DNA of 64,000 nt from contig JBDONT010000043.1 in assembly GCA_039831155.1 (NCBI GenBank), forward strand, positions 240,606 through 304,605, in the 5' to 3' direction. Below the pieces are notes generated by a model. The model ran no database searches and was not told the origin of the DNA. It worked only from the letters and a program-made list of their open reading frames with translations. Each line of letters opens with the position of its first letter. The stretch's first letter is position 1. The position numbers and the translations under genes were made by a program. Below, in pieces: positions 45,030 to 48,421 of the stretch. The DNA comes from Nautiliaceae bacterium. GTDB lineage: Bacteria > Campylobacterota > Campylobacteria > Campylobacterales > Nautiliaceae.

Positions 45030-46016
45030 ATGAGTATAAAAGTCCCAAAAAGTATAGATTTAAACGTAAAAAACTCCGAAAGTGTAGGAAGAATTGCCAC
45101 TGCTTCAAAAAATGGGGGAGTTGAGGCGGCTTTAATGATACCTCATCATAAACCAATCTACGACAAGCTCCACTTAGCTTACAACCTAAAAAGGGCTAAT
45201 GAAGAGAATTTCAAACTCTTAGTGGCGATAGAAGGAATACACGAAAACAGATTATCTGATATCTCCATATTAAAAAACAAAGGTGCAAGTGCAATTTATA
45301 TAAATTCCGACGAAGATATGAACTTAATTAAAAGAGTCTTTGAGTATGCAGAGTTTTTGGATATCCCTATTTTCGTAAACTGCAACAACAAAGCTTTAAG
45401 CAGTGGGGTAATGAATGACAGTGAAATAGCCTACTCTTTAGGTGTAAGTGGAATTCCATCTTATGCAGAGAGTATAGAAGTGGCAAAAATATACGAACTC
45501 TCAAAACACTTTAAGGCAAAAGTGGTATTCCAAAGCATCACTACAAAAGAGTCCCTTGAAATCCTTAAAAACAAATCTTCCAATATCTTCATAGACGTAT
45601 GTATAGACAATCTCTATTTTAGCGATGAAAATTTAAAAGAGTTTAACTCTTTATTCAAAACTTTTCCACCTCTTAGAAGCGAAGAAGATAAAGAAGCCTT
45701 ATTAAAAGCCTGCGAAGACGAAACAGTGGATTTTATATCCTCAAACCATATAGCCACAAATCAAAAAGACGTCCCTTTAGAAGAAGCGGAGTTTGGAATA
45801 AGCAAACTAGATATCTTTACCCAACTTGCATACTCACTTCCTCTAAACCCTAAAACGATTACAAAGCTCATATCAACAAACCCGGCAAAACTGTTTAATA
45901 TCCAAATAAAAGAGTATATTACCCTGGAAGAAGGGGAATTTGAAGTTTCTCTTCAAAACTTCGCAAGCAAAGGCAAAAACTCTCCTTATAAAAAACTAAA
46001 ATATCAAATAGTTTAG
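45030..46016 (+). CDS. Inactive dihydroorotase-like protein (PyrC'-type)
   Basis: DLNV in place of DxHxH; GVMNDS, KTFPPLRS, STNPAK. Confidence 0.75.
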   Translation: MSIKVPKSIDLNVKNSESVGRIATASKNGGVEAALMIPHHKPIYDKLHLAYNLKRANEENFKLLVAIEGIHENRLSDISILKNKGASAIYINSDEDMNLIKRVFEYAEFLDIPIFVNCNNKALSSGVMNDSEIAYSLGVSGIPSYAESIEVAKIYELSKHFKAKVVFQSITTKESLEILKNKSSNIFIDVCIDNLYFSDENLKEFNSLFKTFPPLRSEEDKEALLKACEDETVDFISSNHIATNQKDVPLEEAEFGISKLDIFTQLAYSLPLNPKTITKLISTNPAKLFNIQIKEYITLEEGEFEVSLQNFASKGKNSPYKKLKYQIV

Positions 46017-46099: not shown

Positions 46100-47095
46100 A
46101 TGAACTACTATCAACCGATTGATAACAAAATAAAATGTCTTCTTTGTCGCCACCACTGCTTACTTAAAAATGAACAAGTAGGTATTTGTGGCGTCAATAT
46201 AAATAAAAACGGAAAACTTGTAAATTTAGTATACGGACACCCAAGTTCAATAAATGTCGACCCTATCGAAAAAAAACCTTTATTTCACTTTTTACCAAAT
46301 ACCTCTGTTTTATCTTTTGGAACTGTCGGGTGCAACTTTAAATGTCCTTTTTGCCAAAACTGGCGAATAGCCCACACAAATAAAGTAAATGAATCCGTTT
46401 ATGTAAGTCCGGAAGAGATGGTAGCACTTGCCCTAAAATATAACTCAAAATCTATCGCATATACCTATAACGAACCGAGCATCTTTTACCCTTATGCAAG
46501 AGATGTGGGAATACTTGCAAAAAAAGCCGGGCTTAAAAACGTATTTGTAACAAACGGATTTGAGAGTGTATATGAGATTGAAGATATGAAAGAATGGGTG
46601 GACGCTTGCAATGTAGATTTAAAAAGCTTTAAACCTGAATATTACAAAAAAGTGCTAAAAGGAAGACTTGAATATGTACTTGATACTATTAAAAGATTAA
46701 ATGAAGTTGGAATCTGGCAAGAGATTACAACATTAGTAGTCCCGGGAGATAACGACAGCGATGAAGAGTTAACTCAAATTGCGGAGTTTATTGCAAGCGT
46801 AAATAAAAATATACCTTGGCATATAACACGATTTCACCCGGATTATGAAATGCAAGACAAACCGCCAACTCCAATGGAAACTATGATAAAAGCATATGAA
46901 ATTGGGAAAAAAGCCGGACTTAAATATGTATATCTTGGAAATGTGGCACTGCCTGTTGTAACACACTGCCCTACTTGTAATGAAGAGCTTATAGTTCGCT
47001 CAATCTATAGAGTTGAGAAAAATATCTTAAAAGTAAAAGAAGACAAAGGACACTGCCCTAAATGTAACACTGAAATAAAAGGAGTATGGAAATGA
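46100..47095 (+). CDS. amrS: AmmeMemoRadiSam system radical SAM enzyme
   Basis: CLLCRHHC, DPIEKKPLFHF, GCNFKCPFCQN, YTYNEP, RFHPDY, C-terminal CxxC pairs. Confidence 0.92.
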   Translation: MNYYQPIDNKIKCLLCRHHCLLKNEQVGICGVNINKNGKLVNLVYGHPSSINVDPIEKKPLFHFLPNTSVLSFGTVGCNFKCPFCQNWRIAHTNKVNESVYVSPEEMVALALKYNSKSIAYTYNEPSIFYPYARDVGILAKKAGLKNVFVTNGFESVYEIEDMKEWVDACNVDLKSFKPEYYKKVLKGRLEYVLDTIKRLNEVGIWQEITTLVVPGDNDSDEELTQIAEFIASVNKNIPWHITRFHPDYEMQDKPPTPMETMIKAYEIGKKAGLKYVYLGNVALPVVTHCPTCNEELIVRSIYRVEKNILKVKEDKGHCPKCNTEIKGVWK

Positions 47096-47880
47096 GAAAA
47101 GCAATGTTTAAAGAGTGGTATGGAGATAGTTGTGAAGCGGTTGAGAATTATATAGCTCATTTTAATAAAATAATAGATGAAAATGTAGATAAAAATAAAG
47201 CCGAAGAAATTTTCAGTTTAAAACCAAAAGCCCTAATCGTTCCTCACGCCGGATGGGTATACAGCGGATTTACTGCAAATTTTGCATATAGAATAGCAAC
47301 CGATAAAGCTCAAAAAATAGCCGTAATAGGACCTTCTCATAAATTTGCATTTGACGGAATTAGCATAACATTGGAAGACGAATACGAAACCCCTTGTGGA
47401 AATTTAAAAATAGACACTTCTCTTGCAAAAGAGTTAATAGAAAAATTTGACGTTCAAAACTTAGAATACGTCCATACCGAACACTCGACTGAAGTTCAAA
47501 TGCCTTTTATCAAACACTATTTTAAAAACCCTCAAGTAATAGAACTTATCTACTCAAACTATTCGCCTTTTAAATTAAAAGAAATAATCAATTATTTACT
47601 ATCAAAAAACGTTGTAATAATTATAAGCAGTGATTTAAGCCATTATTACGATTTAGAAACGGCTAAAGCTTTAGATGCAAACTGTCTAGAAGCGGTAATA
47701 AATGAAGAAACGGAGTTTTTAAAAAATTGCGAAGCCTGTGGAAAAATAGGAATAGAAGCAATTATTTTAAGTGCGAAGGAAAAACAATTAACTCCTTTTA
47801 TAGTGGATTATAGAACAAGTGCCGAAATAAACAAAGACACAAAACAAGTCGTAGGATATATGAGTGCAATTTTTATTTAA
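47092..47880 (+). CDS. amrB: AmmeMemoRadiSam system protein B (Memo-like)
   Basis: VPHAGWVYSG, GPSH, EHSTEVQMPF, SSDLSHY, ACG, VVGY; ATGA overlap with amrS. Confidence 0.9.
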   Translation: MRKAMFKEWYGDSCEAVENYIAHFNKIIDENVDKNKAEEIFSLKPKALIVPHAGWVYSGFTANFAYRIATDKAQKIAVIGPSHKFAFDGISITLEDEYETPCGNLKIDTSLAKELIEKFDVQNLEYVHTEHSTEVQMPFIKHYFKNPQVIELIYSNYSPFKLKEIINYLLSKNVVIIISSDLSHYYDLETAKALDANCLEAVINEETEFLKNCEACGKIGIEAIILSAKEKQLTPFIVDYRTSAEINKDTKQVVGYMSAIFI

Positions 47881-47890
47881 TATAATTTTT

Positions 47891-47929
47891 TGTTATAATT
47901 ATATCCGTTAACTTCCCAAAAAAGGAGGT
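47891..47929 (+). promoter_or_regulatory. Extended -10 promoter and strong Shine-Dalgarno for the small basic ORF
   Basis: TGTTATAAT at 47891-47899; AAGGAGGT at 47922-47929. Confidence 0.7.
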
Positions 47930-47932
47930 AGT

Positions 47933-47992
47933 ATGGCTAGAGGAAAATTCAAAATGAAAAGAAAAAGAAGAAGAGTTTTATATTCAAAATAA
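47933..47992 (+). CDS. 19-aa highly basic peptide MARGKFKMKRKRRRVLYSK; candidate small ribosomal/RNA-binding protein
   Basis: Own promoter and AAGGAGG SD; ATG...TAA; 10/19 residues K/R, none acidic; only AGA/AAA for R/K. Confidence 0.7.
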   Translation: MARGKFKMKRKRRRVLYSK

Positions 47993-48028
47993 GCTTCTTT
48001 TTTTCTTTCTATAAAACCAAAAAGGCTT

Positions 48029-48421
48029 TTAAAAAGATTTAATTATTTTACTTGCTAGTCCTAAATCTATATTACCTCTTTGTTTAAGTCTTTTCATAAT
48101 TTCACCCATATTTTTACCACCGATTTCATCGATAATATCTTTTATAATTTTAGCAGTTTCTTCTTCGCTTAACATTTTCGGTAAGAAACTCTCATATATT
48201 TCAAGCTCTTTTTTAGCTTCTTCAATTCCCGCCTCAATTGATTCTTTTGCCATCTTAGCAAGTTTTTTTGCAGCTTCTTCAATTATTTTTTCATCAACTT
48301 CAACACCTTTTTCTTTTGCTATTTTTTGAGCTGTATCCACTAACATCATTAAAGCATTTGCTTTTGTTTTATCTTCTTTTTTTGCTTTCATCATCATTTT
48401 TTTAAGTTCAAGTAGTGTCAT
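48029..48421 (-). CDS. GatB/YqeY domain protein
   Basis: MMMKAK, EL..YESFLPKMLSEEE, NMGEIMK..K....D. Confidence 0.85.
   Translation of the reverse strand: MTLLELKKMMMKAKKEDKTKANALMMLVDTAQKIAKEKGVEVDEKIIEEAAKKLAKMAKESIEAGIEEAKKELEIYESFLPKMLSEEETAKIIKDIIDEIGGKNMGEIMKRLKQRGNIDLGLASKIIKSF

Follow-up and report, generated by a model that had tools for sequence, protein, structure and literature searches.

Several very small and highly basic proteins are located at functional centres of ribosomes, where they affect antibiotic binding; bS22, bL37, bTHX and eL41 are the studied examples. The bTHX protein of Thermus and of chloroplasts contains about 26 amino acids and is found in the head of the 30S subunit. 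Short reading frames of another kind are the leader-peptide open reading frames (ORFs) of translation-dependent attenuators, such as those of pyrBI and of amino-acid operons. For bL37 and bS22, the excerpted text of PMC10081302 gives lengths of 24 and 33 amino acids and isoelectric points (pI) of 12.02 and 12.75, respectively, places bS22 at helix 44 of the small subunit, and describes both proteins as long unannotated, with bL37 being skipped by gene callers. Here, we describe a gene for a tiny, ultra-basic peptide, located between amrB and yqeY in a 64,000-nt stretch (the window) of contig JBDONT010000043.1 from a Nautiliaceae bacterium. The reading frame is almost certainly a real protein-coding gene. 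Peptides of this kind, tiny, ultra-basic and overlooked by gene callers, are known, while this family is new. The reading we rank first, tentatively, is that the product is an accessory micro-protein binding ribosomal RNA (rRNA) or the ribosome.

Like bL37, a 50S protein of Actinomycetota (NCBIfam model NF047428), the Nautiliaceae peptide is very short, has a pI of about 12, and appears dispensable and overlooked by gene callers, as far as the excerpt characterises bL37; it shows no sequence match to bL37, is five residues shorter and belongs to another phylum, and ribosome binding has been demonstrated for bL37 alone. With bS22, mS38 and eL41 it has in common that it is a Lys/Arg-rich micro-protein (bS22 being non-essential according to the same excerpt of PMC10081302), but no model of this group matches at E ≤ 10, and its 19 amino acids fall short of the 25 to 33 positions of these models. 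The analogy with bTHX, in which a basic peptide of restricted lineage would serve a thermophile ribosome, was drawn by the first-pass annotation; there is no Pfam or PDB chain match, and the Nautiliaceae peptide is patchy within its own family. The resemblance to an attenuator leader is that the ORF codons make up one side of a predicted terminator-like hairpin, with a metabolic gene, the glutamate dehydrogenase gene gdh, directly downstream in nine relatives. ORF and hairpin overlap in 36 of 37 variants, and a same-strand gdh is present in those nine relatives and absent from the window genome. Unlike in an attenuator, the whole peptide is under purifying selection and persists without gdh and without the hairpin, and no alternative antiterminator structure was identified.

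The gene occupies a 148-nt gap between the end of amrB and that of the convergent yqeY (Table 1). The first-pass annotation had described a complete expression unit here, and all the sequence features it named are present: an extended -10 box (TGTTATAAT), a Shine-Dalgarno (SD) sequence (AAGGAGGT) and a 19-codon ORF encoding MARGKFKMKRKRRRVLYSK. Its claim of an ultra-basic product is confirmed, with 10 Lys or Arg among the 19 residues, no Asp or Glu and a computed pI of 12.0; the computed mass is 2440.0 Da with the first methionine and 2308.8 Da without it. Nineteen codons are the full length of the ORF, because the frame is closed by a stop at 47909–47911 and offers no alternative start codon. 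For the window genome (1.53 Mb, G+C content 0.32), such strong expression signals are unusual. As had been suggested for the SD sequence, AAGGAGGT is found upstream of just 4 of 1559 crude long ORFs, which puts it in the top 0.3%, and the combination of TGnTATAAT, AGGAGG and ATG occurs three times in the genome.

A DNA search with the 148-nt gap against 40 relatives gave strong matches in 17, in addition to the own genome. The frame is intact, with start, stop and SD sequence, in the window locus and in 16 of the 17; the seventeenth match (G024) covers query positions 103–136 only, outside the ORF, and its contig ends inside gdh, pointing to an assembly gap rather than a loss. Genomes and metagenome contigs together yielded 37 distinct unit sequences, in all of which the frame is unbroken. 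Length changes are by whole codons only, giving one form of 18 amino acids (exactly one codon fewer) and two of 20. Variation is concentrated at wobble positions (GCT/GCA, GGA/GGT, TTC/TTT, CTA/TTA/CTT, TAT/TAC, TCA/TCT/TCC and AAA/AAG), and the ratio of non-synonymous to synonymous change (pN/pS), summed over sequence pairs, is 0.18. Conservation with synonymous changes among relatives, proposed earlier as a check on the gene, is thus what is observed. Outside the Lys/Arg run, residues G4, F6, L16 and Y17 are conserved.

The clearest evidence for coding comes from the g6 genus (genome G010, about 40% GC), where the Arg codons read CGG, CGA, CGG, AGA, CGA and CGG, versus AGA elsewhere. Despite this recoding the peptide is kept: the g6 product, MPRGKFRLKRKRRRVLGGKK, is identical to the g3 form over its first 16 residues and 74% identical to that of the window, and between the window and g6 forms pS is about 1.0 and pN 0.20. 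In g3 lineages lacking a downstream gdh there are 26 synonymous and no non-synonymous differences. The pN/pS is 0.18 both with and without gdh, and promoter, SD sequence and peptide are intact after gdh loss. Since frame, start, stop, SD sequence and -10 box recur with mostly synonymous change, the ORF is far beyond what chance would produce, and selection acts on the amino-acid sequence of the peptide. The gene is also autonomous, its sequence being kept apart from amrB or gdh and in the g6 form without either of the RNA hairpins described next. The part of the first-pass proposal that concerned a real, overlooked ultra-basic peptide gene is therefore strongly supported, while no match to the known tiny ribosomal proteins was obtained.

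The -10 box reads TGnTATAAT in 35 and TATAAT in 36 of the 37 unit sequences and, where the script placed it correctly, ends 28 to 39 nt upstream of the ATG. The predicted transcript would be about 105 nt long, extending from about 47906 to about 48010, and would contain two hairpins. In the first, located in the 5' untranslated region (UTR), a CUUCC, CUCC or CUUUC motif (present in 32 of the 37) pairs with the SD sequence. The SD pairing probability averages 0.89, versus 0.44 for shuffled 5' parts, with the 5% level reached in 29 of 36; read by eye, the bases flanking the two motifs covary (A..T, C..G, T..A). For the window, the computed free energy of this stem is -6.4 kcal/mol at 37 °C, -3.1 at 55 °C and -1.4 at 65 °C. 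The second, terminator-like hairpin is formed by the codons of the Lys/Arg run and a CU run behind the stop codon. Its minimum free energy is -12.1 kcal/mol in the window and between -11 and -19 kcal/mol in 36 of the 37 variants, while 400 flanks taken from behind other long ORFs of the genome gave -5.1 ± 3.2 kcal/mol. In sequences with AAG in place of AAA at codon 11, C stands at the facing position of the CU run, again as judged by eye. This hairpin would explain the near-constant AGA at codons 12–14. RNAalifold yielded no consensus from an ungapped alignment of 31 of the 37 sequences because the 3' arms differ in register; a simple terminator scan found none at the locus, and the fold of the unit as a whole is not significant (z-score -0.89). 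The g6 form has neither the 5' nor the 3' hairpin. Both hairpins had escaped the first-pass annotation. Rfam produced sub-threshold hits only, among them one to the Plastid-psbA-2 3' UTR RNA on the minus strand at 47951–48011 (26.5 bits versus a gathering threshold of 55.8, E 0.028), most likely reflecting the purine/pyrimidine hairpin. On the folding predictions, a coding Lys/Arg run that doubles as a terminator arm would be a self-terminating design, an unusual detail; the persistence of the gene between two unrelated neighbours is also unusual.

The gene was found in 21 of the 29 Nautiliaceae genomes examined and in 28 metagenome contigs. A six-frame profile search of 301 genomes of the order recovered it at E ≤ 1.4e-7 in 19 of 25 Nautiliaceae, the own genome included; two further family members (G402 and G403) have it upstream of gdh. 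It was not found in G002 and G003, both incomplete Nautiliaceae, while G016 lacks yqeY as well, so that the region is probably unassembled there and the absence not firm. A GTDB-wide scan with a peptide pattern gave 69 stretches, five of which passed tblastn, all identical peptides in metagenome-assembled genomes (MAGs) of Nautiliaceae/Nautiliales; the other 64 were not displayed, which leaves room for a range wider than this. The same kind of scan in metagenomes gave 48 stretches; the tiny ORF itself accounts for 28 of these, without exception on contigs of 25–40% GC, and the other 20 are chance occurrences (long high-GC ORFs or frames without a start). Because some metagenome contigs and MAGs represent identical DNA, the two sets are not independent. 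In two metagenome contigs of 27–30% GC (L109 and L137), the core pattern of the peptide lies in an 18-codon frame preceded by no ATG, GTG or TTG, which may be chance or a decayed copy.

Upstream, the gene neighbourhood is nearly constant. The amrB stop lies 37 to 66 nt before the peptide ATG in 45 of 47 loci (18 of 19 in genomes, 27 of 28 in metagenomes), the two exceptions being g6-type loci. In g6 (G010; metagenome contig L099:460-2935, and L039) the peptide gene follows znuA, an ATP-binding cassette (ABC) ATPase gene and a 202-amino-acid gene without a Pfam or NCBIfam family. Zinc-uptake loci often adjoin alternative ribosomal protein genes. Downstream, the neighbour varies, with yqeY in about half of the loci. 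In nine relatives from four genera (G001, G004, G008, G012, G011, G019, G298, G402 and G403), a large NAD-glutamate dehydrogenase gene (gdh, PF05088, 864–1013 amino acids) starts 15 to 50 nt past the peptide stop on the same strand, with yqeY behind it; the window genome has no PF05088 match anywhere. The first-pass annotation had overlooked this gene of the relatives. In G022, a gdh fragment of 62.5 bits accompanies a peptide gene without SD sequence and with four replacements. The ancestral order was likely amrS-amrB-peptide-gdh, with gdh lost several times independently in Nautiliaceae. None of 23 amrB loci of other Campylobacterota families has a basic small ORF with SD sequence behind it, and none of 15 gdh loci (12 from other families, plus those of G007, G010 and G014) has a Lys/Arg-rich ORF upstream. 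To judge from this gene order, neither amrB nor gdh explains the peptide.

If the product of 18 or 19 residues acts in trans, it would do so by binding a polyanion, which a charge of +10 and the lack of any hydrophobic segment appear to demand. The most likely target would be rRNA, with the peptide as a non-essential accessory component of the Nautiliaceae ribosome in the manner of bL37, bS22/eL41 or bTHX, though unrelated to them. We place this reading first because, among conserved bacterial peptides of this type, ribosomal ones form the largest class, and in size, pI (12.0) and absence of acidic residues the product agrees, in our assessment, with the tiny peptides known from ribosomes. Cultured Nautiliaceae grow at 50–60 °C. 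The short hairpin that sequesters the SD sequence would be marginally stable at these temperatures and might gate or stabilise the mRNA, while the 3' hairpin would end and protect the transcript of about 105 nt. A bolder version, which we regard as doubtful, is that of a new ribosomal protein family, the shortest known in bacteria at 18–19 residues, that arose within the vent-dwelling Nautiliaceae, whose Lys and Arg codons form the terminator, whose SD-masking hairpin tunes synthesis to temperature, and whose ancestral transcript doubles as a translation-dependent leader of the catabolic gdh.

Several results weigh against a ribosomal role. Pfam-A and NCBIfam scans with 20-amino-acid readings of the peptide gave no family at E ≤ 10 (NF047429 being covered by the whole-library NCBIfam scan only), and in the PDB, among chains of at least 20 residues, no chain was obtained at E ≤ 10 by phmmer with a 20-amino-acid variant or by hmmsearch with an eight-sequence profile. 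In the own genome, NF047430 (ribo_bS22) has no match in six frames at E ≤ 10, nor does NF047428 (ribo_Myco_bL37, cut-off 30 bits) at this threshold; PF05162 (Ribosomal_L41) reaches only 13.2 bits on another contig (six frames, E ≤ 10) and PF08213 (COX24_C) only 12.7 bits inside a 620-amino-acid frame elsewhere. No translation genes adjoin the peptide gene except the convergent yqeY-mnmE operon, and the SD sequence is, on the folding predictions, held in a hairpin. Judging by the genomes compared, the distribution is narrow and patchy even within the family: the peptide was recovered from none of the 276 genomes that represent 25 other Campylobacterota families (best E value 0.0156), and it is absent from the 99% complete genome G009, in which amrB and yqeY abut (the only firm absence), while G002 and G282 have other sequence and no peptide gene behind amrB. 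Eleven of the weak profile matches outside the family (E ≥ 0.0156) were inspected, and none is a small basic ORF. The sole RNA data are metatranscriptomes: three vent-sample runs from two studies contain the stretch as contigs (one from X1 spans 47935–48413, another ends at 47899); these cover the ORF, but strand, ends and level are not readable from them, and they are no evidence of expression.

As shown by its absence from the 99% complete G009, the gene is dispensable and, on present genomes, it appears restricted to Nautiliaceae. Dispensability is no argument against a ribosomal role, because deletion of bS22 and bL37 in M. smegmatis caused no growth or translation defect, as given in the excerpt of PMC10081302. 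A literature search on Campylobacter and Helicobacter ribosome structures returned nothing relevant among the entries listed. Replacement of bS21 by the peptide is ruled out, as bS21 is present elsewhere in the genome (69.9 bits). The two natural variants of 20 amino acids have no entry in a collection of 15 billion proteins, and the peptide strings do not occur in a corpus of 8.4 million texts. Tiny ultra-basic peptides are systematically overlooked in annotation; the Nautiliaceae peptide is shorter than bS22, bL37, bTHX and eL41, and so young that it is limited to a single family. If ribosomal, it would be an example of a ribosome acquiring a new protein, and even if it is not, it offers a clear example of a micro-gene that is predicted to build a 3' hairpin from its own coding sequence, and of a peptide gene that survives the repeated loss of its downstream neighbour. 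Cultured strains of Nautilia, Caminibacter and Lebetimonas exist.

Of the other explanations, the one closest to a ribosome-binding peptide is a non-ribosomal, trans-acting polyanion binder, such as a small nucleoid, tRNA/mRNA or polyphosphate-binding peptide, which we consider unlikely but rank second. It draws on the same coding and autonomy evidence, and the patchy presence in the family fits an accessory factor. In a variant of it, the peptide would act as a counter-ion that protects a thermophile of low GC content (32%) from heat, with translation rising as the 5' hairpin melts, consistent with the weakening of that hairpin from 37 to 65 °C. Even at 65 °C, 90% pairing is predicted for the SD sequence, so that a thermometer function is not evident from the energies alone, and the search of the other families of the order, thermophilic ones among them, did not recover the peptide. 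A type I toxin peptide was rejected as a candidate: 10 of the 19 residues are Lys or Arg, there is no hydrophobic stretch, and the opposite strand carries neither an ORF nor a promoter-like site at this place. The reading that the ORF is incidental to an RNA element (a small RNA or the amrSB terminator) is already very unlikely. Two conserved hairpins, the weak Rfam match to a 3' UTR hairpin and AGA at codons 12–14 in 18 of 19 sequences (codon 12 in all 19) would fit it, the last point being explained by the hairpin as well. Against it, g6 changes its Arg codons by two bases each and loses both hairpins but keeps the peptide; codons 2, 4, 5, 6, 8, 17 and 18, which lie outside the hairpin, vary at the wobble position; and ATG, stop and SD sequence are kept, with length changing by whole codons only.

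An unlikely explanation, less so than the RNA element, is that the ORF acts mainly in cis as a leader of gdh and is a leftover of gdh loss in the window genome. A ribosome on the Lys/Arg codons would melt the hairpin, or re-initiate at gdh 15 to 50 nt downstream, and gdh expression would then follow translation or the supply of Arg/Lys-tRNA; in Pseudomonas aeruginosa, arginine induces the large glutamate dehydrogenase. In 9 of the 13 Nautiliaceae gdh loci inspected, from four genera, the ORF immediately precedes gdh on the same strand, the stop codon lies in the loop of a hairpin whose 5' arm is the Lys/Arg codon run, gdh starts with a weak SD sequence or none (read by eye), and in G022 the gdh remnant coincides with the loss of the SD sequence and the four replacements. 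On the other side, the window genome keeps promoter, SD sequence and peptide with no PF05088 protein; in at least 10 genomes without a downstream gdh the peptide is unchanged while synonymous sites vary, as in g3; residues outside the Lys/Arg run (G4, F6, L16 and Y17) are conserved; the g6 form has neither the hairpin nor a gdh behind it; and the 12 gdh loci of other families and three of Nautiliaceae lack such an ORF. A pure attenuator leader, in which only regulatory codons are constrained and which is lost with its gene, was rejected, as the whole peptide is constrained and kept in at least 10 loci without gdh. A leader role beside the peptide function, where gdh is present, is quite possible. 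A smaller probability than to the gdh leader is given to the peptide being a substrate, cofactor-like partner or regulator of AmrS/AmrB, the first of which the first-pass annotation had offered as an alternative for the neighbouring radical S-adenosylmethionine (SAM) enzyme. The constancy of amrB upstream while the downstream neighbour varies speaks for it, no genome was found with the peptide and without amrB, and AmrS is similar to glycyl-radical activases, whose targets are proteins (TIGR02493, 59.9 bits). All of this synteny is seen within a single family and may be inherited rather than selected, and none of the 23 amrB loci elsewhere carries such an ORF, which leaves the substrate proposal with family-internal synteny only. 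Moreover, in G010 the peptide gene and amrB are on different contigs, the former in its znuA neighbourhood; G009, G002, G014 and G282 have amrB without the peptide; amrA is elsewhere in the genome; AmrS has no SPASM or peptide-recognition domain in Pfam; and the peptide gene has its own promoter. A precursor of a ribosomally synthesised and post-translationally modified peptide made by the radical SAM enzyme was likewise rejected, given the same 23 loci, an AmrS consisting of Radical_SAM and a sub-threshold zinc ribbon only, and the lack of linkage in G010. The openings of the abstracts on AmmeMemoRadiSam contain no statement on function.

Table 1. Peptide gene, predicted RNA structures and neighbouring genes, with positions in the window
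Feature	Position	Strand	Remarks
amrS, AmmeMemoRadiSam radical SAM enzyme	46100–47095	+	TIGR04337 345.9 bits (cut-off 220); Pfam Radical_SAM
amrB, Memo family	47086–47880	+	TIGR04336 219.9 bits; Pfam Memo
Extended -10 promoter box TGTTATAAT	47891–47899	+	Putative transcription start at about 47906
5' UTR hairpin (predicted)	47911–47929	+	Anti-SD ACTTCC, 47911–47916, pairs with GGAGGT of AAGGAGGT
Shine-Dalgarno sequence AAGGAGGT	47922–47929	+	
19-codon ORF and stop, product MARGKFKMKRKRRRVLYSK	47933–47992	+	ATG 47933, TAA 47990–47992
3' hairpin, terminator-like (predicted)	47960–48010	+	Purine run of codons 10–16 pairs with CU run 47993–48010; stop codon in loop
yqeY, convergent downstream neighbour	48029–48421	-	Pfam YqeY

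In the window, amrS and amrB overlap by 10 nt (47086–47095), while amrA (AMMECR1, 155.7 bits) is located on another contig of the same genome (G000 C35:44619-45134). Upstream of amrS, a 328-amino-acid ORF (45030–46016, plus strand) has no Pfam match at E ≤ 0.001; it resembles NCBIfam models of dihydroorotases and metal-dependent hydrolases (best 214.6 bits versus a cut-off of 499) and, from these scores, may be a divergent or truncated amidohydrolase. Among the metatranscriptome contigs, one from X3 joins position 47992 to 48036, skipping 43 nt. Its source is a relative with a shorter spacer between the peptide stop and yqeY, and similar spacers, of 9 to 19 nt, are found in G007 and G020.
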